A stretch of DNA of 64,000 nucleotides from Bdellovibrio sp. (GTDB lineage Bacteria; Myxococcota; SpSt-1050). Of this stretch, positions 1,353 through 59,364 are shown piece after piece. Below the pieces are notes generated by a model that did no database searches, had not been told where the DNA came from, and saw only the letters and a program-made list of their open reading frames with translations. The position numbers and the translations under genes are program-made. Each line of letters starts with the position of its first letter. Position 1 is the stretch's first letter. The stretch covers positions 11,676 to 75,675 of the forward strand of contig DYEF01000070.1 of the NCBI GenBank assembly GCA_020725805.1. The letters run 5' to 3'.

Positions 1353-3272
1353 TTATTTGACTAATACTTTCTTGGAACCGATTCTTCTCACATTATTATC
1401 TGCATCAACGGCATATACCTCTAAAAGATGAGGGCACTTTGAGAGACTCGATACATTATAACTGCCGGAGAATCCGACCTTATTCGTATTGCATCCGCTG
1501 TATCCGGGCCAGACCTTACAGACATCCGGACGGTCATTGCCATAAGTAAGGGTAACCGTTATGCTCTTATCGATAACCGCATATACGGAAGTAACACCCT
1601 TATTATCCAGCGCCCAGCCACCGATTATCATATTACCTGTCACCTCTGCGTCATTTGCCGGGACATCAAGTGTTCCGAAAGGCCCGAGTTTTTTGTCGAG
1701 CGTTGTAAATTCTGCCCTGATTGTATTATAATTACCCAAAGAGAGATATGCCCTAGCACGCACTGTGCCGCTTGCCGGAATTCCGAAACTGAAGAGTGCC
1801 CTTACATTATTAAACGGAAGTGATCTGAGCTGCCAGCCCTGAAAATCCTGAACCTTATTCTCATAATAAATCCCAACCCCGTAATTGACCGCGTCATTCT
1901 GCATTGCAACCCATCCGCCGCTGCTCTTGAAATTCTTGTAATAAAAACCATCCCCGCCGGCAGGCTGGTCGATCGGTATAACGTTGTTATCAGAATCAAA
2001 GAGTTTATACAGGTCCTGCGTCCCGCCCTTTCCATTGGCAGTATACATCGTAGGCATTTCCTGATACGTCGGTCTGTGCTCGAGATTCGACAGATTAATT
2101 ACTGTATAATCCAGTTCGACTACGTGCTGCGTAATAAATCTCATTCTCTGAATCACCCGCACATCTGATTTCCGGTTCTTCTTGCTGGGGTCGTTGCAAC
2201 CTGAAGAGTCACAGTCAGTTCTGTCCCAGTCGGGATTCCAGAAGAGCGGGATAGTCGAGACTACAAGATATTCCTTATCCATCGCAACAGATTCAACACC
2301 CGAACCTATATTACACCTGTTACCTCCCTGAACCGGGTCCCAGCCCAAGAATGTAATGGAATTCGGACAGCCTGAAGGAACGGTCGCACAACTCGCATTG
2401 TAGGCGCAATTCTGCAAAATCCTGTCGGGGTCATAAAATGCAACCTGTACCTCTCTCCCAGTATCATTTGCATCTATTGTATTGGTCGTATTCATACCCA
2501 CCTTGCCGTCCGAGAGACCGAAGAATATCACCGAACCGCCCCACTCCCTTCTTACCCCGATCTTGGTATAATTTGTCACATTATACAGATAATCGTCGTT
2601 AAAGCCGTTTATCTTGGTAGTCTCATACTTTCCGGCAACAAGACTCTCCGAAGGGATAACCTGCTCAAGCTCTGTAAGCGTAACTTCCTGACACTGATTC
2701 TGGATACAGTCGTTATTGGCACATCCGTTTTCACAGGTCTTGTAAAATCCGTACTCCAGACACCCGTCTTTATTAAAATCTGCACATATCTCGAGGGTCA
2801 GAGAATCCTTACACCTCTTCTGGTCCTTCTGACATTCGCTAACGCATTGTGAAATATCGGTAATATCCTCTGATACTACATCCTGAATGATAGTATCTGA
2901 AATATCAGGTAAATTTACAACATCTGCTATATCGTCAGATATTATATCCCTGATATCGTCAGAAATCTGAAGATCGGTTATTGTATCCGGTATCGATATT
3001 ATATCTTTGCTATCTTCATAAATATCGGTACTGTCGCTTATCATTACATCCACAATATCATCGGAAATCACATCCTGAACAATTATTATATCCTCCGTAT
3101 CGGTGTATTCGGCAATATCCTCTATAGTAACTACATCCTCATAAACTGAGATATCCTTTCTTGTATCGGTAATCTGTTTGAGACTGTTTTCTGAATCCGA
3201 ACAGGAAATAATCAGCAGAAGCAAAAGCAGAAGACTACTTATTTGTACTGTCATATTCATCAAATATCTCAT
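1353..3272 (-). CDS. lipoprotein with acidic D-I/V-S repeat tether, Cys-rich module and unknown C-terminal beta-rich domain
   Basis: Signal peptide plus lipobox LLLIISCSD. About 110 aa of DI/DV/SD low-complexity repeats, then a module with 10+ Cys (CVSECQKDQKRCKD...CENGCANNDCIQNQC). GGAG 6 nt before the ATG at 3272. Confidence 0.7.
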   Translation of the reverse strand: MRYLMNMTVQISSLLLLLLLIISCSDSENSLKQITDTRKDISVYEDVVTIEDIAEYTDTEDIIIVQDVISDDIVDVMISDSTDIYEDSKDIISIPDTITDLQISDDIRDIISDDIADVVNLPDISDTIIQDVVSEDITDISQCVSECQKDQKRCKDSLTLEICADFNKDGCLEYGFYKTCENGCANNDCIQNQCQEVTLTELEQVIPSESLVAGKYETTKINGFNDDYLYNVTNYTKIGVRREWGGSVIFFGLSDGKVGMNTTNTIDANDTGREVQVAFYDPDRILQNCAYNASCATVPSGCPNSITFLGWDPVQGGNRCNIGSGVESVAMDKEYLVVSTIPLFWNPDWDRTDCDSSGCNDPSKKNRKSDVRVIQRMRFITQHVVELDYTVINLSNLEHRPTYQEMPTMYTANGKGGTQDLYKLFDSDNNVIPIDQPAGGDGFYYKNFKSSGGWVAMQNDAVNYGVGIYYENKVQDFQGWQLRSLPFNNVRALFSFGIPASGTVRARAYLSLGNYNTIRAEFTTLDKKLGPFGTLDVPANDAEVTGNMIIGGWALDNKGVTSVYAVIDKSITVTLTYGNDRPDVCKVWPGYSGCNTNKVGFSGSYNVSSLSKCPHLLEVYAVDADNNVRRIGSKKVLVK

Positions 3273-4383
3273 CTGTACTCCTCCATCTGATTTTCTGTTT
3301 TTTTACATAATAATCTACTTCCAAGAGCCATTTTTCGAAGAGAATCTTATCTGGTTCGGTTCCAAAACTCCATATAAAGATAATCACATTTACCTTGTTT
3401 TTATCAAACATAGTCAGTGAATTATCGATAATATCGAGAGACCTCTCTATATCAAAATTGTCAAAGGTACAATTGATAATATTCTTGCCCGGATTCTTAA
3501 ACTCTTCGTCGAGACAGGCAAGCCTTGAGAAAGAGGGCATCAGAACCATAAGTCCCTCAGGGTCGTCAATCCTCCAGTCTGAACCGAGCTTTCCCCTCCA
3601 CGGAAATAATCTCTTGTTAGTCTCGAACGGATACGCCTGCTGGCATTCGAAGGTGGCAAGGCAATTCTTCACAAAATCGGGTTGCTCTTCGAGAGGAAGG
3701 GATTTGAGACAGAAGGCTGTAATCGAAGTAATATACTTAAAACCCACATTAAATGAGGCAGCTACCCAGTCGAGCTGACTGCAGACACCTGATACAGAGA
3801 GCGGTTTTATGGACAATCTCTCCATTTCATCTTTTTTATCTCTTAAGTCCTGAACAAAGTCAGAAAAGGTCATACCGTATTTCGTCCCTGAATCCGCGTG
3901 TATATTTACGCTGTGCCCTCTTGAGATAAGCCTGTTCAGAAAATCACTTCCGTACTTAACCGAAGCACTTACAATCTCCTTTGCTTCAAAAGATATCTTT
4001 GCATTATACTTTTCAAAAAGCCCTGCTATCCCGTCAATCTTTGTTACATAAGTATCAAAAAGAGATTTATTATTGAGTATATCAGAGTTTTCGAGCTGCA
4101 CAATAAGGCTGATATTCAGCATATTTACAGGACCGCTGTCATAGACATCTTCTATATCAGACGATACAATATCATCTATGTACTCCGGAATACCTGCATC
4201 CTGTACATCCTGAATATCCTCTGCTTCAGCAATATCTGATATATCTTCGCTGTCATAAAGCATATTATCATCTGCAGATCTGACGTCCTTTGCAACCTTA
4301 ATATCTGATGCCGGATTATCACTTCCCGAGCAGGAGAGAAGAAATCCAGAAAACAGAAATGCAATCAGATATAATCTCATCAC
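3235..4383 (-). CDS. lipoprotein with acidic D-I repeat tether and unknown C-terminal domain
   Basis: Lipobox FLLSCSGS followed by SEDISDIAEAEDIQDVQDAG acidic repeat. Its 3' end overlaps the start of 1353..3272 by 38 nt, suggesting translational coupling. Confidence 0.7.
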   Translation of the reverse strand: MMRLYLIAFLFSGFLLSCSGSDNPASDIKVAKDVRSADDNMLYDSEDISDIAEAEDIQDVQDAGIPEYIDDIVSSDIEDVYDSGPVNMLNISLIVQLENSDILNNKSLFDTYVTKIDGIAGLFEKYNAKISFEAKEIVSASVKYGSDFLNRLISRGHSVNIHADSGTKYGMTFSDFVQDLRDKKDEMERLSIKPLSVSGVCSQLDWVAASFNVGFKYITSITAFCLKSLPLEEQPDFVKNCLATFECQQAYPFETNKRLFPWRGKLGSDWRIDDPEGLMVLMPSFSRLACLDEEFKNPGKNIINCTFDNFDIERSLDIIDNSLTMFDKNKVNVIIFIWSFGTEPDKILFEKWLLEVDYYVKKQKIRWRSTDEIFDEYDSTNK

Positions 4384-4500
4384 TATCCCCTTTGAACGAA
4401 CATATAATATTCTACATACTCTTTAATATCAAGACAAAATAAACGCTAATGGTAACATTCACATATATTAAAAGACTTTTAAAAGATATTCCATCAAAAC

Positions 4501-4632
4501 TTCAGCCACTTCCCTTCAGCTCTACATCGCTTCGGCACACTCAATTACTCAGCGATCTTGGAAGTACTACCGCCTTCAGATCTATAGCACTATTTGTCTG
4601 TGGACTGTCGACTGTGGACTGTGGACTTTACT
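4501..4632. repeat. dispersed intergenic repeat, copy A, ending in tandem GTGGACT heptamers
   Basis: A ~45-nt core ttcagcc..ccttcagctctacatcgcttcggcacac, then ttactcagcga, gccttcag, tctatagcactat and ctgtggactgtcgactgtggactgtggact. All blocks recur in the same order at 30971..31190. Confidence 0.6.
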
Positions 4633-4722
4633 TATAGTATCTGATTGCTTGAATTGTCAAAATAAAACTGATATTATATTGTTATGAAGTGAGTTTGTAA
4701 TAATTATCAGGAGGCAATCAGG

Positions 4723-5127
4723 ATGAAACGCAGAATATTATTTGTCGCGTTTATTACCGCAATTACTCTCTTCTCCTGTACCGCTACGGATTCAGGCACA
4801 ACAACCGATTCGTCGAACCTTAACGACAGGAATTCCTGCAACAACGACTTTAATGCTATTTCACAGGAAATAAATAAGGCAGCAGCTAAATATAATGACT
4901 GCCAGACGAATGAGGAGTGCAAAATTGCCTATATCGACATTAAATGTCTTTCGACCTGTCCGATGGCAATTAATACAGATAAAATGAAGTACTTCGAGGA
5001 AGAGCTCGAAAAGATCTCAGACAGCTATTGCATCGATGACTGCAAAGCATCTGCCAATTGCGAAATAAGAGAACCCGAATGCCAGAACAATAAATGCGTA
5101 ATGGTGATAAAGAATCCCGGCACATAA
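4723..5127 (+). CDS. small Cys-rich lipoprotein
   Basis: AGGAGG 8 nt upstream. Lipobox ITLFSCTA. 134 aa with 12 Cys in C-x3-C and C-x-C arrangements. Confidence 0.65.
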   Translation: MKRRILFVAFITAITLFSCTATDSGTTTDSSNLNDRNSCNNDFNAISQEINKAAAKYNDCQTNEECKIAYIDIKCLSTCPMAINTDKMKYFEEELEKISDSYCIDDCKASANCEIREPECQNNKCVMVIKNPGT

Positions 5128-5133
5128 CCGAAG

Positions 5134-7278
5134 TTACAGATTTTCATTTATACTTGTAGTCTTGTTCTCTTTTATCTCAACTTTAATCGTTTTCGATTTT
5201 TTCTGCTCCGGATCAAAGAGCGTAATTCTGTATATCCCCTCGTACAAATCCAAATCGGAAAGAGGGGTCTTGCCTAAAAGATTTCCTCCAAGTCTGACTT
5301 CCGCTGGAACATTTGTAGAAATATTTAACAATCCTTTACCAAATTTTACTTTATTTACTGTATTATCTTCGGGATTTACATTGATTTTTAATGGTTTTTC
5401 GAAGCCAAATTCGGAATTCTTCAACAATAAATTATAGGAACCTGCTATCAGCTCATATCTTACAAGCGGGGTTTCACCGATCTTCTTTCCATCCAGATAA
5501 ACCTCCGTCCAGGGGTCTGAATCAATACTGACAAACCCCTTTTTTGGCTCCACTGATTCAGTCTGAACCTTCTCTTCCTGTTTATTATCGGTCTTGTCTT
5601 CTGTCTTTCCTTTCTCCGGTTTCTTTTCTTCTGCCCTTTGTCTTTCCACCACTGCTACTTTCTGTTCCCTTTTCTTCCCTGTCTCTTCCTGTCTACTATT
5701 CTCCTGCGGTTCAGAAGCCGTCTTTTCTTCCGCCACAACTTTGACCAACGTTCCCTCATTCTTTATTTGTTCCTTTTCTTTATCAGTCTTATCTACAGCC
5801 TTCTTTTCCTCTTTCAAAGCAGTTGATACAGATATAACAGACTGAGTCTCTTCCTTTTTGCCCGTTATAAAAACAAAATATAAAATCCCTATCAGTATAA
5901 ATATGCCTATTAAAGTCCCTGCTATTAAGAAATTCTTCCTTTTACTTTTTGGTGTCTCTGTGACTTCTGATTTTGACGCTTCTATCGTCAGATTGTCATC
6001 TCTATCTGAATCTTCTTTACCAGCTACCTTATCCTCTCTGCTCTCATCTTCAACCTCTTTTCTTTGAGGTATTTCTATCTTTATCTCATCCATTACTTCG
6101 GAGAGTGGCTTTATGGCAGAAACAGATAATTTTTCTTCTGATACCTCAGACTTACTTATGTTTAAGTCATTCGCAGTTTCACCTCCATTTAGACCTTCAG
6201 GTGAAGGAGGAGGAAGCACCACAGTCTCGCTCTCACTTACGGGATGTTTTTTCTGGATTGTAATTACCGGAAGACTGTTGCTTGCGCTTTTATGTTCTTT
6301 TATCTCAACAATTTTCTGAAGTCTGGAAGAACTGAGTTTGTCTCTGACCGAGGATATCTCTTTGTCGGGGAATAATTTTTTTAAATAATCACTGAGGTCC
6401 GATATCCTGACATTTACCCTTCTTTTTATAATAAAATCCTCGATGGCATTTCCCATTTCCCGGGTACTCTGAAATCTCTTCTCCCTGTCCCTTTCAAGAG
6501 CCTTCATTACAATAGATTCAACCTCATCTGGGAGATTCTTAAAGTACTTCTTTGGAGACGGAATCTCTTCATTAAGTATGGCATTAATTGATGCAACCTC
6601 GGTATCTCTCTTAAAAAGCCTTCTATAGGTGAGCATTTCCCACAACACCACACCAAGGGAAAAGATATCCGACCGGGAATCAATCTCCATACCCCTTACC
6701 ATTTCGTAGGACATATAGGGAAATTTGCCCTTGAGTGTTCCTGACGTCGTGCTCGTTGAACGCCCCCTTGCGCGGGCAATTCCGAAATCGGTAATCTTCA
6801 CATTTCCGTTAAATGACAAAAGAATATTTTCCGGAGTAATATCCCTGTGAATAAGCCCGAGACTCTGTCCGTTCGGGTCTCTCAATGTATGCGCATAATG
6901 TAGTCCTTCACAGACCTGAGAGATAATTTTCAGAATCCAGCCAAGTCTCAGAAAACTCTTCTGCTCTCTTCCCCGCTTAAGAATGGAAGAGAGGTCGACA
7001 CCGTCCACATACTCCATTGCAATGAAATATGATTCACTTATAACTCCAAGGTCATATATCTGAACAATGTTCGGATGATTGAGTTGTGCCGCCATCCTTG
7101 CCTCATCAAGAAACATATTGACAAATTCCTTATCCGTAGAAAGATGAGGAAGAATTCTCTTGAGGACTATAAGTTTCTGGAATCCCTCAATCCCTGTCTG
7201 TCTGGCAAGAAATATCTCGGCCATACCACCTGTGGCAATTTTCGTTATAATTTCAAATTTCCCGAACTTCTCGCCCAT
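5134..7278 (-). CDS. Hanks-type Ser/Thr protein kinase with one TM helix and C-terminal PEGA-like domains
   Basis: Gly-loop ATGGMAEIF. VAIK-like LIVLKRI. HRDITPENILL catalytic loop and DFGIA. One TM helix (FLIAGTLIGIFILIGILYFVFI). PEGA-like segments PWTEVYLDGKKIGETPL and PAEVRLGGNLLGKTPL. Long Lys/Glu-rich linker. Confidence 0.9.
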   Translation of the reverse strand: MGEKFGKFEIITKIATGGMAEIFLARQTGIEGFQKLIVLKRILPHLSTDKEFVNMFLDEARMAAQLNHPNIVQIYDLGVISESYFIAMEYVDGVDLSSILKRGREQKSFLRLGWILKIISQVCEGLHYAHTLRDPNGQSLGLIHRDITPENILLSFNGNVKITDFGIARARGRSTSTTSGTLKGKFPYMSYEMVRGMEIDSRSDIFSLGVVLWEMLTYRRLFKRDTEVASINAILNEEIPSPKKYFKNLPDEVESIVMKALERDREKRFQSTREMGNAIEDFIIKRRVNVRISDLSDYLKKLFPDKEISSVRDKLSSSRLQKIVEIKEHKSASNSLPVITIQKKHPVSESETVVLPPPSPEGLNGGETANDLNISKSEVSEEKLSVSAIKPLSEVMDEIKIEIPQRKEVEDESREDKVAGKEDSDRDDNLTIEASKSEVTETPKSKRKNFLIAGTLIGIFILIGILYFVFITGKKEETQSVISVSTALKEEKKAVDKTDKEKEQIKNEGTLVKVVAEEKTASEPQENSRQEETGKKREQKVAVVERQRAEEKKPEKGKTEDKTDNKQEEKVQTESVEPKKGFVSIDSDPWTEVYLDGKKIGETPLVRYELIAGSYNLLLKNSEFGFEKPLKINVNPEDNTVNKVKFGKGLLNISTNVPAEVRLGGNLLGKTPLSDLDLYEGIYRITLFDPEQKKSKTIKVEIKENKTTSINENL

Positions 7279-8756: not shown

Positions 8757-11700
8757 TCACTTTAGTACCATAGTATTCTGTCCGTAATATACATATTCCG
8801 TACCAACTGTATCTCTCCTGATTTCTATTCTTATCTGACCAACACCAGTTGGTTTCGTATATGTAATAACCGGACAATTTAGTGCCGTATTGGTTGTAGT
8901 GGCTGTAAATGTACAATCACTACCAACCTGTGTACCATTTACAAGAAATCTGATTCTTCCCGCTATTGTACCCGCACTTGAACTGATAAATCCTAATGCA
9001 CGCAATGTATTTCCGGGTATCGAATCAAAATCCACTGCCCATTTATTCAATTCTACCCAACTTGTCTGGTTTGTACCATATAAGCCTTCAGGCACACCTG
9101 TCAGGATAACTGCCGCATGCCAGCTATCTACCATATCTGCATTGAGATTGGCAACCTGAGTCGTCGAACTAACAGTAAGAGGGGCTGTACCTGTGGCAAC
9201 AGCAGATATTAATTGACCACTCGCTCTGATATTACCTGACACATCAAGTTTCTGTACAGGCACGGTATTACCAATACCGACATTATTATCTTCGCCACTA
9301 ATAAAAATCTGAGTCCCTGAAGTATTGGATATCCCGAATGAGCCAAGACTTGTTGTTGCATAAATAGTCCAGTCTGAAGACCTTGTGCCATTAACCGGCC
9401 CAGTAAAATTATACTGTAATCTCAATGCCACGTTCCCTGCAGTACTGCCAGTACTATATAGATGCAGTTTTGACGATGGAGCTGATGTACCAATTCCCAC
9501 ACTCCCGGATGTCGTCGCGAGATATGTATTGCCCGATACAGTTAAGGTGTCCAGAGTTCCAACTCCTGTAATATTGGTATAACTACCTGCGGATAAATCA
9601 CTATTAGTAATTGTACCATCAGTAATCATAGAAGATGTAATACTATTTGCCTGGTTTTCATTTACAAATGTAGAATCACAGGTGTTACAGGAAGTAATCC
9701 CGAGGTCTGTATCGCACATAAAATATTCTACACCGGGCTGCTCCACATAATATTTTACAACCTGTCCGCTTGAGCAGCCTGACTTTGCAAGTTTTGAAAG
9801 AGTAATCGTACTGTTTGCTATATCAGAACCTGTAATTGTACCATCTGTTATCATTGCTGATGTGATACTATTAGCCTGATTCTCATTCACAAACCTCGAA
9901 TCGTATGCCGAACCATCCTGATAAGCTGAAGAGAGGGAGATTGTGCCGCTCGTAGTTATAGGACCGCCGGTGAGACCGGTACCGGTCTGTATGCTCGTTA
10001 CCGTGCCGCCAGAGTTGGCGTCATCCGAACATATCCAGGCTGTATTCGTTGCATTTCTCTTCATTATCTGATTTGCAGTGCAGGTATTTGCACCTATATC
10101 GGCAAAGAGTATCGTCCCGTCTGTTATCTCCGATGATTCTATTGAGTTGCCGAGCAGAGAAACATTCGATGATAATCTTGCATCCGATATCGTTCCGGAT
10201 GTGATATCCGCCCCGGAGTGTGTGTGTGATGATGAGGCAAATGAACTTGCGTGTTGCCCGTCGAGCATATCGGCATTCAGATTTGCTACCAGAGTAGTGG
10301 AGGCTATGCTGAAAGGCGCGGTCCCTGTTGATACCGTGGATACATAGCTCGGCGCACTCGGTGCTACTGAAAATGTCTTTGCACCGCCTATTGTCTGTGC
10401 AGTGCTGAGGTCTACAAAATTCTGGGTGCTTGAACCCGTACCGCCATTTGTTATCGGTATTACACCTGTCAGAGATATATTCGGTGTGGTCCCGCCACTG
10501 CTTGAAAGCGGGGCACTCGCTGTAACAGATGTAACGGTACCACCGGAATTGTTGTCATTGGCACAGACCCAGTTGCCTGCAATATCATTGTATTTAATGG
10601 TCTGACCGTTTGTACAACCCGACTGCGCAAGTTTGTTTATATTTACGGAGGAAACTGCAATATGCGAATCTCCGACCGACCCTCCTGCTATCATTGCAGA
10701 GGTTATGCTGCCGGGCTGATTTTCATTCACAAACCTCGAATCGTATGCCGAACCGTCCTGATACGCAGAAGTAAGAGATATGGTCCCGCTGCTTGTAATC
10801 GGGTCCGGAGTTACGGAGATACCGTTTCCTCCCGAGATATTTACCGAGCCGCCTCCGCCTGATACCTCATCAGCGGCACACTCCCATTTTCCGGTTGCAC
10901 CGGAGAACTTCAGAATCTGTCCGTTGACACAACCTGAGCTGTTCAGTTTATTCTTCGAAACGGCATTATCCGCAATCATAGACTCGGTTACAGATGACGG
11001 CTGCCCCTGCTGGATATAAAGATTGTCAAAGTATGTCTTATCAATAGAAATAGTACCAACTCCTATAATCGGATTAGGGTCAACAACTATGCCTATACCG
11101 GCACTGATAGAGACGGAACCACCTCCTCCGCCACATAAATCACACACAACAGTCCCGTCTTCATTGATTTTTGTAACACAGGTCCCGGGATTGCAAAATC
11201 CCGTTATTCTGTTCTGTTTGCCGGCGAATAACAGATAATCCTCTTTGGACAGATAGCCGTCAGTGCCATCACCAGCCTTCGGAATACCGATACTTCCGGT
11301 ATCTGTAATAGTCCCGCCCGTAAGTGGAGAAAGAGCAGTTATGCTCTTTACACCGGGAATGGAAGAACTGTCGCCGGACCATTTACCATTTTCGTCGATG
11401 ATCTTCTTCCCGCCTATAGTAATACTCGTAGGGTGAATATCGCCCACCACATCATAGGAAACGAAGGCAAACGGGACAGCCCCGATTCTCTGCCGCGGGG
11501 ACAAGGCCTCATTATTTATTCTTACCTCGAGAAAGAGACTGTTTTTATCTGAAAAGACTGAATATAGATTGGAATTTTTCCCTATCTCCAGAGCATAAAA
11601 CCCGTCCTTGACACTGACAGAGCCGATATCCTCTTCCAGAATAGCAGTACCACCGCTCTGTGTCTCATAAATTCCGAATGAGATATTGAGATTACCGTTT

Positions 11701-11819
11701 ACCGGATTTCCGTTCGTATCGGTGAGATATCCCTGATGGAGTATTACCCTCGGAATATCACCGGCATAAGATATTAGAGAGAAGATAAAGACTACAATGA
11801 AAACCATCTTCCTTAACAT
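8757..11819 (-). CDS. large secreted repeat protein, tail-fibre/adhesin-like
   Basis: Start MLRKMVFIVVFIFSLISYA with AAGGAGG upstream. Recurrent units C-x-NGQ-(I/V)-K-(F/Y)...W-x-C-A-x-D...GGGGSV and LSSAYQDGSAYDSRFVNENQ.NSITSAMI.DGTIT. Gly/Ser/Thr-rich. Confidence 0.8.
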   Translation of the reverse strand: MLRKMVFIVVFIFSLISYAGDIPRVILHQGYLTDTNGNPVNGNLNISFGIYETQSGGTAILEEDIGSVSVKDGFYALEIGKNSNLYSVFSDKNSLFLEVRINNEALSPRQRIGAVPFAFVSYDVVGDIHPTSITIGGKKIIDENGKWSGDSSSIPGVKSITALSPLTGGTITDTGSIGIPKAGDGTDGYLSKEDYLLFAGKQNRITGFCNPGTCVTKINEDGTVVCDLCGGGGGSVSISAGIGIVVDPNPIIGVGTISIDKTYFDNLYIQQGQPSSVTESMIADNAVSKNKLNSSGCVNGQILKFSGATGKWECAADEVSGGGGSVNISGGNGISVTPDPITSSGTISLTSAYQDGSAYDSRFVNENQPGSITSAMIAGGSVGDSHIAVSSVNINKLAQSGCTNGQTIKYNDIAGNWVCANDNNSGGTVTSVTASAPLSSSGGTTPNISLTGVIPITNGGTGSSTQNFVDLSTAQTIGGAKTFSVAPSAPSYVSTVSTGTAPFSIASTTLVANLNADMLDGQHASSFASSSHTHSGADITSGTISDARLSSNVSLLGNSIESSEITDGTILFADIGANTCTANQIMKRNATNTAWICSDDANSGGTVTSIQTGTGLTGGPITTSGTISLSSAYQDGSAYDSRFVNENQANSITSAMITDGTITGSDIANSTITLSKLAKSGCSSGQVVKYYVEQPGVEYFMCDTDLGITSCNTCDSTFVNENQANSITSSMITDGTITNSDLSAGSYTNITGVGTLDTLTVSGNTYLATTSGSVGIGTSAPSSKLHLYSTGSTAGNVALRLQYNFTGPVNGTRSSDWTIYATTSLGSFGISNTSGTQIFISGEDNNVGIGNTVPVQKLDVSGNIRASGQLISAVATGTAPLTVSSTTQVANLNADMVDSWHAAVILTGVPEGLYGTNQTSWVELNKWAVDFDSIPGNTLRALGFISSSAGTIAGRIRFLVNGTQVGSDCTFTATTTNTALNCPVITYTKPTGVGQIRIEIRRDTVGTEYVYYGQNTMVLK
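9600..10800. repeat. intragenic near-identical DNA repeats inside 8757..11819
   Basis: ctgattctcattcacaaacctcgaatcgtatgccgaaccatcctgata at ~9881-9927 matches ~10721-10767, exactly 840 bp apart. A diverged copy lies at ~9640-9680. Confidence 0.7.
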
Positions 11820-11838
11820 TATAAACCTCCTTAAAATA

Positions 11839-12336
11839 TTACTTTTTAAAAAGCACATTTCTGTGCAATATATACTGACTGTTTCTCATCTCCTCCGAGG
11901 CGGTAAAACCTGTCACAGATTCGAGGACATAATTGGGTGAAGTACAGATACCCGCACTCGAATCATACACAGATTCAATACGGAGAATATAATTTACCTG
12001 CACGTCTGTACCACCGTCAGTAATATCGGATATTTCCTCCACACCTCCGGTATCCTCAATATCCTGAATATCTTCCGCATCGGAAATATCCGCAATATCC
12101 TCTGTATCTGTTGCGGTATCCGTGACATCCTGCATAACATCTGTAACAGCATCAGTACCGGCATCCCTGACTAATTTTATGCACCCCTTTGTCTTATCGC
12201 AGACATAACCATCCTTGCAGTCCTTATCTGTCTCACACTGGAAGGTAAAATCCTTTATTCCGATATCTTCCGAACAGGAAAAGAGCACAAATATCATACC
12301 TGCCAAAAGTATATAAATCAGATTCTTTATTCTCAT
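11839..12336 (-). CDS. small lipoprotein with Cys-rich module and acidic D-I repeat
   Basis: Start MRIKNLIYILLAGMIFVLFSCSE (lipobox FSC) with GGAGG upstream. CETDKDCKDGYVCDKTKGC, then TEDIADISDAEDIQDIEDTGG. Confidence 0.7.
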   Translation of the reverse strand: MRIKNLIYILLAGMIFVLFSCSEDIGIKDFTFQCETDKDCKDGYVCDKTKGCIKLVRDAGTDAVTDVMQDVTDTATDTEDIADISDAEDIQDIEDTGGVEEISDITDGGTDVQVNYILRIESVYDSSAGICTSPNYVLESVTGFTASEEMRNSQYILHRNVLFKK

Positions 12337-12355
12337 CTGATTCCTCCTAATAAAA

Positions 12356-13198
12356 CTAAAATTCAAAAGAACTATTTACCACAAAACCATCACTGCCAAA
12401 AGAGAATGAAACTTTCTTGTCTTTTTTATCTTTTTTGATTTTATTCAAAACAAAATAACTGGTAATCCCTCCCGCTATCGCAAGTGAACCAACTGCAATC
12501 AATGTGTTGCCTATTATAACATTCGTATTGATATCATCCTGTTTCTGCTGTGCCTCTGCCTTTGTAATACCGATTATATTGCCCAGCTCATCTCTGGGGG
12601 CATCATTGAGTTTCTTTCTGTAATCCTCTGCATCGGAAGCGGCATTGAGCCTTACAACGATACCCGGTATAAAGAGCACGGCACCGGCAGCAAAGAGACT
12701 GACAGGGACGATATTCTCCTTAAAGAAATTCTCCTTCTTCTCCGGTTGGTCCGTCTTTGAAATGATAGTAACTCTCTCCTCCACATCAGTCTTGACGGGT
12801 TTTGCCTCGATTATCTTTGCTTTCGGGGTCTCATCCTTTTTCAATCCCTTTTTTACTTTAGCAAAAGGCTCTCTGAGTTTCGGGGATACAGAAGGAGAGA
12901 GGGTATAATCAGGGTCTATATCATAAATTTCCTTAATGACATTTTCTGCAAGTGCCTTCCTGTCCGAGAGTATATAGATAAATGCCTTATATTTATACAG
13001 TTCCAGCAGTTCCTCTTTTTTCATACTGAATTTGTATTGTTCGAGCTGATTTATCTCCTTGAGGCATTTTTCATAATCCATATTGTCATATAATTCCACG
13101 ACCTTCTTTATTTTTGCAGAATAATCCTCTGCAAACAAAAGGCCGAAGAAACACATAAATAACACTACAAAAAACAAGATTTTGATTGATCTTTTCAT
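12356..13198 (-). CDS. membrane protein: signal peptide, TPR-like helical region, C-terminal 2-TM hairpin
   Basis: Start MKRSIKILFFVVLF with GGAG upstream. C-terminal module SDAEDYRKKL...IIGNTLIAVGSLAIAGG resembles the C-termini of 39075..39995 and 42009..42695. Confidence 0.6.
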   Translation of the reverse strand: MKRSIKILFFVVLFMCFFGLLFAEDYSAKIKKVVELYDNMDYEKCLKEINQLEQYKFSMKKEELLELYKYKAFIYILSDRKALAENVIKEIYDIDPDYTLSPSVSPKLREPFAKVKKGLKKDETPKAKIIEAKPVKTDVEERVTIISKTDQPEKKENFFKENIVPVSLFAAGAVLFIPGIVVRLNAASDAEDYRKKLNDAPRDELGNIIGITKAEAQQKQDDINTNVIIGNTLIAVGSLAIAGGITSYFVLNKIKKDKKDKKVSFSFGSDGFVVNSSFEF

Positions 13199-30778: not shown

Positions 30779-30970
30779 CAGACTCTCCTTACATTCAAAA
30801 ACGGTACAAACAGCAGATTTTAATAAATTAAAATCCTGCTACTATACCACTTTCAGATTCTCAGCCGCTTTGTAATACTTATTAATAAAAACAATGTCAA
30901 GTTATATCCAAATCCTTTCATACCCAAAAAATTTAATAAAAATCCTAAAAATCTCTCCCATCAAAAACTT

Positions 30971-31190
30971 TAGCCTTTTGCCTTCAGCTCTACATCGCTT
31001 CGGTACACTTCGTTACTCAGCGACCTTTAAAACACAAGGACGTTGAATAGCGAGCAAAGCGAGTATATCGAAACGCCTGATATAATCGTGGCTTCGATAT
31101 GCTTCGCTACTCATCCACCTTATTAGCACTATCGCCTTCAGCCTTCAGCTCTATAGCACTATCTATTCCGCGGACTATGGACTGTGGACT
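30971..31190. repeat. dispersed intergenic repeat, copy B (with ~90-nt insertion), ending in tandem GGACT heptamers
   Basis: ccttcagctctacatcgcttcggtacac...ttactcagcga...gccttcag...ctatagcactat...cggactatggactgtggact. Lies ~90 nt upstream of tRNA-Arg. Confidence 0.6.
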
Positions 31191-31282
31191 ATATTTCGTT
31201 TCAGCACCAATCCTTCTGTGAGCCGCGAATAAAAAATCATTGACAGAATCAAAAAAAAATCATATCAAACACTTCCCTGTCC

Positions 31283-31355
31283 GGGCCAGTAGCTCAACGG
31301 ATAGAGCAACGGCCTTCTAAGCCGTAGGTTGGGGGTTCGAGTCCCTCCTGGCTCG
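31283..31355 (+). tRNA. tRNA-Arg (anticodon TCT)
   Basis: Cloverleaf: acceptor GGGCCAG/CTGGCTC, D-arm GCTC..GAGC, anticodon loop CTTCTAA, T-arm GGGGG TTCGAGT CCCTC. 73 nt. Confidence 0.9.
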
Positions 31356-40164: not shown

Positions 40165-42012
40165 ATGAATATTGACAGCAGATATCAGATTCTGGAAAAG
40201 GCCGGCTCCGGCGGTATGGCCGCGGTATACAGGGCACGGGATACCGTATTAAACAGGGATGTTGCGGTAAAAGTCCTCCATCCGCATCTGATTGAAAAAG
40301 AGGAGGTCAAAAAGAGATTTCTGAGGGAGGCACAGGCAATCGCCCGGCTCAGACACAAAAATATCATTGAAATATATGATTACAAATCAGACTCCTCAGA
40401 CTGCTATATAATCAGTGAATTTATTAAAGGTAAAAATCTCGGCACATTCCTGTCCGAATACGACATATCTTCACCGTTTATAGCCGCTATGATTATATCT
40501 GTCCTTGCAGATGCAATAGGACACGCACATAAAAACAATGTCATACACAGAGACCTGAAACCTGAAAATATCCTTATATCCGAAAACTATCAGTTAAAGA
40601 TTGCCGATTTCGGAATTGCACATATAGCGGACGCAGAAAGTCTTACAATAACAGGCTCTATTTCGGGCTCCCCTGCACATATGTCTCCCGAGCAAATCGA
40701 CGGAAAGGATGTGGATTTAAGAACCGATATATTCTCCCTCGGCACAATACTATATCTCATTTCCTGCGGAGAACTCCCTTTTAAGGGGAACTCTCCGGCC
40801 TCTATCTTCAAATCTATACTTATGGGGGAATATAAGGAGCCGAAGGAACTCAATCCTTTAATTGACAGCAGATTCTCTGCAATAATACAGAAATGCCTGA
40901 AGAAGAATCTGGCCGAACGTTACAGCAGCACAGAAGAGCTCAAAGCAGAGCTCAATGATTATCTGAAAGGATACGGAATTACCAATACAGAGCAGAATCT
41001 TCAGAAGTTTTTTCAGGAACCGATCGAATATCTCGATGAACTCAACAAAAAGATTGCCGGACACCTCAAGGAATATCTCTACAAGAACATACATAACACA
41101 GAAAGCAGAATTCAGATTCAGGATTACCTGAATATCCTTCTGTACCTTGCACCCGATGACGATGATGCAAAGGCCATATTTGAGAGATTCTCTTCCCTTG
41201 AAGATTCAGAGAGAAGGTCAAAAAGGATAAAATCAGTCCTTCTGGCAAGCGCAATATTCCTTCTTATGGCTTTTATTGTCTTCAACGCAGTCTCCTATTA
41301 TAAAAGGATACCTGACTCAAACACAAAGCCGGCGGAGAATACGGTTGCAGTTACACCTGATGACAAATATCCCGATGTCCATACAACCCCATCGGAGGAA
41401 GACAAGATAATATCAACCGGAAATGAATCAGAAAGAACAGAAGAAAAGTCAGAAGAGGAGATGGTACTGAAAAAACCAAAGCGGAAGATTGCCCGTCCAC
41501 AGTCAGCAAGGGAGAAAAGCCAGAGTAGTGATGAAAAGGAAGAAAGTACAATTCCCAGATTCGGGGAACTCAACCTGTTTGTAAAACCTTACGGCGATAT
41601 ATATATCAATAATCAACTTGCAGGCAGGGAAAAGGCAACCCTCAATATCAAACTTAAGAGCGGAAAGCACTTTATCAGGGTCAAAAACCCCTTCTTCTTC
41701 GATATAGAAAAGGAAATCAGCATAGAGCCGGATTCGAAGACCGACCTCAGACTGGTATTTGACAATATTAAACCTGCAAAATTATTTATTAACACTTCCC
41801 CAGAATGTGATATATATATTGACGGCAACCTTCTGGGACGGAGTGATATGTATACTAAGAGTGGTATTACTATTCCTATAAATACCAAGGACGGAAGACG
41901 TGAAATACTCCTTAAGGCGTCAAAGGCAGGATACAAAGACTATATCAGGAAGATAGAGCTGACCGCAGGTGAAGCCAGAACTTTAAAAATCAACCTTACC
42001 AAAGAAAAATGA
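40165..42012 (+). CDS. Hanks-type Ser/Thr protein kinase with TM helix and C-terminal PEGA-like domains
   Basis: GSGGMAAVY loop. VAVKVL. HRDLKPENILI. DFGIA. SPEQ. TM LLASAIFLLMAFIVFNAV. C-terminal LNLFVKPYGDIYINNQLAGRE and LFINTSPECDIYIDGNLLGRS. Confidence 0.9.
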   Translation: MNIDSRYQILEKAGSGGMAAVYRARDTVLNRDVAVKVLHPHLIEKEEVKKRFLREAQAIARLRHKNIIEIYDYKSDSSDCYIISEFIKGKNLGTFLSEYDISSPFIAAMIISVLADAIGHAHKNNVIHRDLKPENILISENYQLKIADFGIAHIADAESLTITGSISGSPAHMSPEQIDGKDVDLRTDIFSLGTILYLISCGELPFKGNSPASIFKSILMGEYKEPKELNPLIDSRFSAIIQKCLKKNLAERYSSTEELKAELNDYLKGYGITNTEQNLQKFFQEPIEYLDELNKKIAGHLKEYLYKNIHNTESRIQIQDYLNILLYLAPDDDDAKAIFERFSSLEDSERRSKRIKSVLLASAIFLLMAFIVFNAVSYYKRIPDSNTKPAENTVAVTPDDKYPDVHTTPSEEDKIISTGNESERTEEKSEEEMVLKKPKRKIARPQSAREKSQSSDEKEESTIPRFGELNLFVKPYGDIYINNQLAGREKATLNIKLKSGKHFIRVKNPFFFDIEKEISIEPDSKTDLRLVFDNIKPAKLFINTSPECDIYIDGNLLGRSDMYTKSGITIPINTKDGRREILLKASKAGYKDYIRKIELTAGEARTLKINLTKEK

Positions 42013-55047: not shown

Positions 55048-55475
55048 TTTTAGCCAGTGCTTTTACTCATTTGATTCACCTAATCAGGAAATATTATTCT
55101 CCACTCCTGTTCCGTGGTATTACGGCCATTGGCCGTTTACGGTAAACAAATAACAAAACAGATAAGACCATTATGGATATACGAACTGCCATTTTTAATA
55201 ATAGCCTAATGAAACTGGCGCGTATTTTCGCAACGTCGTGTTATTTACTACTATGAACATTATTACAAAATTACCAATATTTAACCATTATTACATTTTT
55301 ATTGACTATTTTAATAAACCAAAACTTATGACCATCTCCTTCTGAATACAGAATATCGAGATTTGACTTACCACTACAGAACGTATGGAAGCCAATGTAT
55401 ACCCGGCACCCCTCGGGGCAGATTTGTTAATTTTTGAATTATTACAATAAGTTAATGATTATGCTTCAATTTTTA

Positions 55476-55504
55476 AAATAAAAAAAGCCCGGGTTTAACC
55501 GGGC
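55476..55504 (-). terminator. rho-independent terminator of the pilin gene
   Basis: GCCCGG-gtttaa-CCGGGC hairpin, followed on the minus strand by a T8 tract. Confidence 0.75.
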
Positions 55505-55525
55505 TTCTGATGGAAATTCCTCTAA

Positions 55526-56089
55526 TTAGTCGTTGTCCACATCATTGCACTGGTTCGGGTCAGCCGCTAAAGCACCTGCTGCTCCGTTTACACCAATGGT
55601 GATCTTCGCATTGATTATCTGGTTGGCCTGGTCGATATTCCACATATCCTCTTTGGGCTCGCCGTCAACATTGCCGTAAGCTGCATAGACAAAGTTGAAC
55701 TGTGTCGGAGCCTGGGCTGCGTATGCACAACCACCGCAGAGGTTTGCACCAGTGCAGAGAGCACCTGTTGCATCACAGGCAATTGTGTCACCGGCAAAAC
55801 CTGACACATATGCATATCTTCTGTTCTTTTCAGGAGCAAACCCCATCGGAATCTTACCAGCGCCAGTCAGGTTAAAGACCAATGTTGCGTATGTGTTGGT
55901 CTCGGCAAACTTTGATTTGGCTGCCGTGAATGCTGCCTTCAGGTTGGTCCTTGCCTCTGACTGCTTTGACCTTGCCTGGAACCTGATAAAGTTCGGGATT
56001 GCCACTGCGGCAAGAATACCGATGATCGCCACCACGATCATGAGCTCGATCAGGGTAAATCCCTTCTTGGTTCTGAGTAACCTTAGCAT
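55526..56089 (-). CDS. type IV pilin (prepilin N-terminal methylation domain)
   Basis: KKGFTLIELMIVVAIIGILAAVAIP class III signal. Cys pair near the C-terminus. GGAGG RBS. Confidence 0.85.
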   Translation of the reverse strand: MLRLLRTKKGFTLIELMIVVAIIGILAAVAIPNFIRFQARSKQSEARTNLKAAFTAAKSKFAETNTYATLVFNLTGAGKIPMGFAPEKNRRYAYVSGFAGDTIACDATGALCTGANLCGGCAYAAQAPTQFNFVYAAYGNVDGEPKEDMWNIDQANQIINAKITIGVNGAAGALAADPNQCNDVDND

Positions 56090-58898: not shown

Positions 58899-59364
58899 AC
58901 ACATACAATCTTCCGTGATAAACGAACTAATCAAAAAGACCGGCAATCTTTCAATCGATAAAGACGCAGACATATCTGATGAGGAAGTCCTTACTCTCAT
59001 TAAGGCTGCCCGGCTTGCACCGAGTGCCGACAATTCACAGATATGGAGGTTTTATGTAATAAAAGATAAGGACAAAATCTCAAAGACACTTACAGGTACA
59101 GGTCTGTCAGAGAAAAATTATAGAATAGTCATTATAGCCCTTGCAGCCCCGTTTATTATCAGACATGTCAGACGGGAACATCCGTTCTATGCAATAGATG
59201 TCCCGATTGCAATCACACATATTCTCCTTCAGGCTCAGGAACTTGGAATCAAGGCAGATATTCACTATGTCTTCGAAAGAAATGAGATTAATGACATACT
59301 TAAAATCCCTCTGAAATACAAACCAGTGGCAATAATCGGACTCAACAGATATGCAGATAAATAA
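58879..59364 (+). CDS. nitroreductase-family protein (second, overlapping copy)
   Basis: SADNSQIWRFYVI motif. Start placed at MKISENK, overlapping the upstream gene's last ~6 codons in another frame. The ORF-track ATG at 58816 would overlap by 83 nt. Confidence 0.65.
   Translation: MKISENKHIQSSVINELIKKTGNLSIDKDADISDEEVLTLIKAARLAPSADNSQIWRFYVIKDKDKISKTLTGTGLSEKNYRIVIIALAAPFIIRHVRREHPFYAIDVPIAITHILLQAQELGIKADIHYVFERNEINDILKIPLKYKPVAIIGLNRYADK

Follow-up and report, generated by a model that had tools for sequence, protein, structure and literature searches.

The two repeat copies that we describe here lie in a 64,000-nucleotide stretch of DNA (the window), and they probably represent a lineage-specific, non-coding, mosaic interspersed repeat of the form A-(B)n-C that has multiplied as selfish or neutral DNA. 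Its host is an uncultured bacterium, represented by a single population or lineage, from a methanogenic bioreactor that degrades terephthalate, and in this host the repeat occupies about seven unrelated intergenic sites. The family appears to be previously undescribed, as a literature search confined to the comparison families found no published account of it. Small interspersed repeats are common in cultured bacteria and have almost never been catalogued for uncultured lineages.

Two copies in the window and their modular plan

Both copies are on the + strand, at 4496-4627 (copy A) and 30964-31190 (copy B), where the first-pass annotation had placed them, and they have three homologous blocks in common. 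The most conspicuous shared feature is a 23-mer core, CCTTCAGCTCTACATCGCTTCGG, which is identical at 4513-4535 and 30981-31003, again on the + strand. No further match to this core with up to three mismatches occurs in the window, and 100 dinucleotide-preserving shuffles searched at the same tolerance gave no matches, so that none is expected by chance. A repeat search of the window aligned a left block of 64 nt at 86% identity (4496-4559 with 30964-31027) and a right block of 27 nt at 89% identity (4567-4593 with 31136-31162). Module profiles match both copies strongly (Table 1). Each copy ends in tandem heptamers, as had been noted: Tandem Repeats Finder (TRF) detects a period of 7 in both, with 4.3 copies over 4598-4627 (score 53) and 3.0 copies over 31172-31192 (score 35). 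Elsewhere in the window no heptamer array rises above chance; the remaining matches carry 2-3 mismatches, and about three of these are expected.

The genomic setting is also as first described. The host gaps of copies A and B measure 339 and 504 nt, respectively, and both rank within the window's five longest; most of its gaps are shorter than 170 nt. A lipoprotein gene (4723-5127, lipobox LFSC) starts 95 nt downstream of copy A. The pair tRNA-Arg(TCT) and tRNA-His(GTG), located by ARAGORN and Rfam at 31283 and 31362, follows 92 nt downstream of copy B. Copy A also occurs in an independent JGI assembly, in which contig JGI12104J13512_1023555 equals the window at 1280 of 1280 nt; it is therefore not an assembly artefact. 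Two other gaps in the window, 55048-55525 (478 nt) and 58899-59350 (452 nt), are unusually long as well, and they contain neither an Rfam match nor a copy of the element. The first of them lies upstream of a type IV pilin gene (55526-56089, - strand).

An alignment of seven copies, those of metagenome loci introduced below (L-numbers) among them, shows together with the module profiles that the copies follow the mosaic plan A-(B)n-C. Module A, on the left, is 64-65 nt long and reads AAAACTTCATCCCTCTCG CCTTCAGCTCTACATCGCTTCGGTACACT CAATTACTCAGCGACCTT. Its central 29-mer is invariant apart from one Y position, and is unpaired rather than part of a stem. Module B is an imperfect hairpin of 89-94 nt with the stems AAGG/CCTT, TTGAGTAG/CTACTCAG and TATCGAA/TTCGATA, plus apical pairs, and there are 0-2 of these per element: none in copy A, one in copy B, L004, L005/6 and L007, at least one in L003 and two in L002. 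The insertion of about 90 nt that had been seen in the second copy is one such module. Two subtypes of B can be told apart, one in copy B and L003, the other in the remaining copies. Module C, on the right, consists of a linker, 1-3 CTTCAG repeats, CTATAGCACTAT and then 2-4 (N)TGGACT heptamers.

Table 1. Features of the two loci, with positions in the window (E-values are from nhmmer searches with module profiles)
Feature	Position	Strand	Description
Copy A, left fringe	4460..4495	+	AT-rich, ..TTAAAAGACTTTTAAAAGATATTCCATC; weakly conserved, boundary fuzzy; outside the profile matches
Copy A, module A	4496..4559	+	29-mer CCTTCAGCTCTACATCGCTTCGGYACACT and tail TTACTCAGCGATCTT; E = 1e-18
Copy A, proximal module C	4560..4599	+	GGAAGTACTACC GCCTTCAG ATCTATAGCACTAT TTGTCT; abuts module A directly, no B module (n = 0); E = 1.5e-17 over 4563-4627
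Copy A, four heptamers	4600..4627	+	GTGGACT GTCGACT GTGGACT GTGGACT; right end of the element
Copy B, left fringe	30925..30963	+	AT-rich, weakly conserved; homology of the window to relative L089 ends at about 30927
Copy B, module A	30964..31027	+	E = 1e-18
Copy B, one B module	31028..31121	+	94-nt imperfect hairpin; stems AAGG/CCTT, TTGAATAG/CTACTCAT, (A)TATCGAA/TTCGATAT; inverted repeats 31036-31053/31104-31121 and 31062-31072/31093-31103; E = 8e-19
Copy B, proximal module C	31122..31169	+	ATTAGCACTATC GCCTTCA GCCTTCAG CTCTATAGCACTAT CTATTC; two CTTCAG repeats (TRF, 31134-31149); E = 6.5e-15
Copy B, three heptamers	31170..31190	+	GCGGACT ATGGACT GTGGACT; right end of the element
Promoter of lipoprotein gene, sigma-70-like (predicted)	4649..4677	+	TTGAAT-17-TATTAT; outside the element, 21 nt past the last heptamer
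Promoter of divergent gene (3235-4383), sigma-70-like (predicted)	4404..4432	-	TTGATA-17-TATTAT; outside the element
Promoter of tRNA-Arg/His (predicted)	31240..31268	+	TTGACA-17-TATCAA with upstream A-tract; outside the element, 49 nt past the last heptamer; read from the sequence; fails the rule of the promoter scan, which requires T at position 6
Promoter-like sequence of divergent Na+ symporter gene	30872..30900	-	TTGACA-17-TATTAC; read from the sequence; outside the element

The modules are related to one another. Every B module has a tail, CTACTCAGCCACCTT, homologous to that of module A, TTACTCAGCGACCTT, and homology links the final 35 nt of A with the 3' arm of B (..GCTTCGGTACACTCAATTACTCAGCGACCTT versus ..GCTTCGATACGCTAAAGCTACTCAGCCACCTT). 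Every B is thus flanked by direct repeats of about 15-35 nt, and these provide a simple recombination or slippage route for changing n. We suggest that the number of B modules has changed through unequal recombination or slippage between these homologous tails, and that the number of short tandem repeats may have changed by slipped-strand mispairing. A further direct repeat, GCCTTCAGCTCTAYA, is common to A and C: the left module has GCCTTCAGCTCTACA, the right one GCCTTCAGMTCTATA. This accounts for the sub-repeat that the first-pass annotation had described as internal to the core: the repeat is real, and is better seen as a direct repeat that brackets the element.

A weak AT-rich fringe reaches about 35 nt leftward of module A, where an alignment of five copies shows a common pattern of weak similarity, TTTAATAAAnTTTTAnnAAAGnTCTCCCATC, upstream of AAAACTT. 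Short motifs on the right-hand side are common to some copies. The boundaries of the element are therefore fuzzy. At the left end, CATCAAAACTTCA was considered as a possible IHF-like core, but it matches the consensus WATCAANNNNTTR only in part.

Copies elsewhere and the host genome

The 23-mer core has no exact match in 185,579 GTDB species genomes (one genome per species). It does occur, exactly, on seven JGI metagenome contigs beyond the window (Ga0067045 and JGI12104J13512, IMG 3300001095), and the window copies are accordingly not the only two. IMG 3300001095 is the community of a terephthalate-degrading methanogenic bioreactor (PMC6052044; 10.1101/322537). A metatranscriptome of the reactor accompanies this metagenome (Nobu et al. 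2015, cited in 10.1101/322537). After removal of duplicates (L005 is the same as L006, and L001 and L003 represent a single locus in two versions, 92% identical) there are about seven distinct loci with unrelated flanks, both window loci included. This number reflects a search in which all of the extra copies were found by one exact 23-mer in one collection. The neighbouring genes are diverse: two lipoprotein genes, the Na+ symporter and tRNAs, an RHS toxin/immunity orphan array, an EamA transporter, a Mut7-C RNase and a PilZ protein. The description as a dispersed intergenic element is well borne out by this spread.

Four of the seven contigs terminate within the element, which is the expected behaviour of a repeat that breaks assembly and a practical reason for recognizing the family in metagenomes. 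The tetranucleotide composition of two long contigs correlates with that of the window at 0.98 (L007) and 0.94 (L002); for comparison, two 14-kb pieces of the window reach 0.98, and the nearest relatives 0.82-0.90. These copies therefore come from the same or a very closely related genome. The variable numbers of modules could serve for strain typing.

Other searches yielded no additional copies. Three degenerate patterns run against viral contigs gave nothing other than one chance match within a phage coding region (L094), and a concatenated six-frame peptide query gave no matches at E <= 10. Provisionally, a search of the GTDB genomes with LigA found no close representative of the host: the best of the matches listed is 55% identical, and the matches are spread over many phyla.

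The first-pass annotation had also considered a remnant of a duplicated gene fragment. We find it very hard to credit that the element belongs to no family and is a relic of this kind or of a local segmental duplication. The extra copies contradict this reading, as about seven loci have unrelated flanks, and there is no conserved reading frame. An opposite-strand RHS-core ORF in L001/L003 does draw its first codons (MGELY..) from the left fringe, and copy B has a similar MGEIF.. stub, both as such a relic might. That said, homology at the RHS locus ends at the fringe of the element, and modular variation in copy number would be unexpected for a gene relic.

Some of the metagenome loci have features of their own. 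L001 1-3846 and L003 2225-2992, on the - strand of the loci, contain an array of low GC content (30-32%) in which every RHS-core C-terminal toxin fragment (PF03527) precedes a small membrane-protein gene, probably one for immunity. The start codon of the first RHS fragment (MGELYEF..) is supplied by the left fringe of the element, and L001 and L003 both end inside the element. A (GATA)n microsatellite is found about 150 nt to the left of the element in L004 (101-130) and L005 (1163-1198). The left flanks of these two loci have about 215 nt in common at 80-87% identity, and their right flanks diverge after about 12 nt; the alternatives are that the loci are alleles with a rearrangement and that they represent a longer form of the repeat.

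Flanking promoters, coding potential and RNA structure

Both window copies are placed between divergent promoters, outside the conserved promoter cores. The symporter/tRNA locus can be compared with relatives, which are MAGs labelled Deltaproteobacteria or Myxococcota; in these the symporter is 78-83% identical and the symporter-LigA synteny is kept. The tRNA pair is also retained in L090, L091 and L092. Both promoter cores are retained in L090 and L092, the relatives whose intergenic sequence was read, and the -35 region of the symporter is conserved in L089, L090 and L092. The DNA between the promoters of L090 and L092 is unrelated to the element, and the module profiles found no match in 1.43 Mb of DNA from relatives and other phyla. 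Because the relatives keep the flanking promoters without the element, we conclude that it is a lineage-specific insertion outside the conserved promoter architecture.

The tRNA-Arg/His promoter itself deserves a brief description. In the window (31229-31268), in L090 (about 9660-9705) and in L092 (about 9265-9305) it consists of an A-tract, TTGACA, an A-rich stretch of 17 nt and TATCA. The sequence AATAAAAA(A)TCATTGACA-N17-TATCA is almost identical in L090 and L092, and the promoter hardly differs between species with protein identities of only about 80%. This conservation gives it the look of a stable-RNA promoter under strong constraint, with a putative UP-like element. In L092 (GCA_973349595.1) the spacer upstream of the tRNAs that stands in the place of the element (9440-9610) has hairpin-like motifs of its own, GTCACCCTGAATTTATTTCAGGGT and CCCTTTTTCAAAGGGGAAAG, and may be a different lineage-specific repeat.

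Does the element act on these promoters? The first-pass annotation had proposed, among other functions, a regulator-binding array. As a cis-regulatory or protein-binding module, the heptamers, the CTTCAG repeats or the 29-mer would recruit a regulator, a nucleoid protein or an insulator, and the number of repeats would tune the effect on adjacent promoters. The heptamer end does face the 5' end of the downstream gene in both window copies and in L002, and both window copies are flanked by divergent promoters. The geometry, however, is not kept. The distance from the last heptamer to the -35 hexamer is 21 nt in one case and 49 nt in the other, and in L004 and L007 the heptamers adjoin the 3' end of a convergent gene, which leaves the element without a fixed arrangement relative to genes. 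Its left end faces the 5' end of an opposite-strand gene at all three loci with a known left-hand gene, too few cases to carry weight. Relatives without the element have conserved the promoters of the tRNAs and the symporter, a 7-bp period does not keep step with the turns of the DNA helix, and the window has no other above-chance tandem heptamers. Set against this are the 29-mer, invariant across copies despite lying outside a stem, and the position of both window copies just upstream of promoters, which could indicate a selected function; in addition, BOX A and C modules have been reported to stimulate downstream genes (PMC3049150). On balance we regard a regulatory role as unlikely, and effects on neighbouring genes would rather be a by-product of the insertion of a selfish or neutral repeat.

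The element is non-coding, in agreement with the original assessment. No conserved reading frame runs through it: the frames of the modules differ among copies, stops occur in all frames across A-B-C, and the length of B is not divisible by 3. With frames that differ between copies, the remnant of a coding gene was rejected as a candidate. A 62-aa ORF has been called across copy A in the JGI contig, and a protein look-up gave only that metagenome contig; this ORF is spurious and illustrates how the repeat family creates false gene calls.

A small RNA was another of the functions first proposed; the family would then consist of small structured RNA genes, or of RNA leaders, read from the + strand and working through the B hairpins and the GGA-containing heptamer tail. 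The copies with B modules generally fold better than shuffled sequences (best-strand z = -2.1 to -3.7). On the + strand the values are z = -3.4 (30964-31195) and -3.7 (30981-31190) for copy B, -3.3 for L002 and -3.65 for L003, and G-U pairs are present in the B stems, all of which would suit an RNA. Copy A, which has no hairpin, folds like random sequence (z = -0.1 / +0.4), and the - strand folds better in L004, L005 and L007. Since the copies disagree, strand asymmetry of folding was rejected as a sign of RNA function. Aligning the B modules gave a consensus structure of 25 pairs with one compensatory change, G-C to A-U, among six modules, a sample too small to decide on selection. Rfam found just the two tRNAs plus noise, both at the gathering threshold across the whole window and at E <= 10 at the two loci. 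We found no conserved promoter upstream and no terminator downstream of the element, and neither a scan nor inspection revealed convincing promoter hexamers on either strand of the AT-rich left fringe. The criteria that define a bacterial small RNA gene (its own promoter, a terminator and a structure supported by covariation) therefore do not describe this element. Like a function in regulation or protein binding, one as a small RNA is possible, and we consider it decidedly improbable.

CsrA prefers to bind A(N)GGA. A CsrA sponge acting through the GGA-containing heptamers was rejected, as their GUGGA context is unlike this preference.

Comparison with known repeat families and mode of spread

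The organization of the element matches that of BOX, the boxA-(boxB)n-boxC repeat of Streptococcus pneumoniae and S. suis. Both are small, non-coding and interspersed, with fixed end modules around variable tandem internal modules, and in both the number of internal modules can change because each folds largely by itself. The length polymorphism of BOX has been attributed to slippage or unequal crossover, and for the number of boxB modules excision with reinsertion has been proposed besides these two (PMC3049150). Membership in BOX fails on sequence and on terminal inverted repeats. The boxA consensus primers BOXA1R and BOXA2R (PMC7291552) have no match in the window at up to three mismatches, and it is from these primers only that we judge the two to have no sequence similarity. 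BOX is said to carry terminal inverted repeats resembling those of ISSpn2, and its boxA pairs with boxC, whereas the bioreactor element has no inverted repeat between its ends in the four copies tested and these ends share a direct repeat. Its right end is an array of tandem heptamers, its internal module is about 90 nt long, and its host is an uncultured lineage labelled Deltaproteobacteria/Myxococcota rather than a streptococcus. Composite repeats of the form A-(B)n-C are thus not limited to streptococci.

REP, BIME and REPIN elements are likewise mosaic intergenic repeats, built of hairpin units in variable number and without terminal inverted repeats. They also lack target-site duplications, and none is visible around the bioreactor element. 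GTAG/CTAC in the arms of the B hairpin is reminiscent of the GTAG tag of REP (PMC3733652, PMC2817692, PMC3116915). A REP unit, however, is an imperfect palindrome of 20-40 nt with an unpaired 5' GTAG or CGTC tag. B is one hairpin of about 90 nt whose arms are not self-palindromic, and its GTAG lies within the stem, paired with CTAC. The long, non-palindromic A and C modules have no REP counterpart. REP also has a cognate RAYT, an IS200/IS605-like Y1 transposase flanked by the repeats, and none is found among the 52 ORFs of the window.

MITEs, Correia elements and ERIC sequences resemble the element in being small, non-coding, intergenic, partly hairpin-forming, multi-copy and restricted to a lineage. 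They differ at the ends, which here consist of direct repeats and a heptamer array. Terminal inverted repeats are absent between the ends in four of four copies tested; the only inverted repeats found lie inside the B module or connect the A tail with the B head. In the flanks of six copies, where boundaries are fuzzy and the available relatives are too diverged, we see no target-site duplication. The missing terminal inverted repeats count against the suggestion of a MITE-like element, and together with the lack of a visible duplication they suggest that the repeat would not have spread by the classical cut-and-paste MITE route. The best reading is that the element is a new family within the general class of small interspersed mosaic repeats, a class that is ordinary in bacteria.

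How, then, might such a family have multiplied within its lineage as selfish or neutral DNA? More likely routes would be mobilization in trans by an enzyme that recognizes the hairpin or the 29-mer, a mechanism put forward for REP/RAYT or IS200/IS605-derived elements, or else recombination and gene conversion. A mobilizing enzyme, if found, would point to an additional mobilization route for elements without terminal inverted repeats. One may go further and picture a BOX-type repeat that arose independently in a deep lineage labelled Deltaproteobacteria/Myxococcota and spread without terminal inverted repeats or target-site duplication, e.g. through a HUH/Y1-type enzyme acting in trans on the hairpin or the 29-mer, its arrays and B number modulating divergent promoters as variable-length spacers or binding arrays. 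We hold this fuller scenario to be rather improbable.

The ORFs of the window include no transposase or integrase. They are ordinary chromosomal genes, among them LigA, ParB, a bactofilin, a ClpB-like ATPase, PEGA-domain kinases, a sigma-54 activator and a pilin. The kinases are Ser/Thr protein kinases with C-terminal PEGA domains (5134-7278, - strand; 40165-42012, + strand). Together with the bactofilin, ParB, PilZ, type IV pilin and sigma-54 activator, they fit the Myxococcota or 'delta' label of the nearest MAGs.

The window also has repeats of a different kind, inside genes. Several ORFs without a Pfam match within 1353-4383 (- strand) and 11839-12366 (- strand) contain acidic, imperfect repeats with a 9-nt period, in which ATATCCTSNN on the + strand corresponds to (E/D)DI-type peptide repeats. 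Two of these Pfam-less ORFs, 1353-3272 and 3235-4383, have lipoprotein-type signal peptides. The repeat families D2-D4 and D6 connect 2852-3126, 4168-4248 and 12022-12108. A further ORF, 8757-11858 (- strand), encodes a repeat-domain protein of 1033 aa without a Pfam match, and its internal repeats at 9594-10802 are 84-147 nt long with 74-77% identity.
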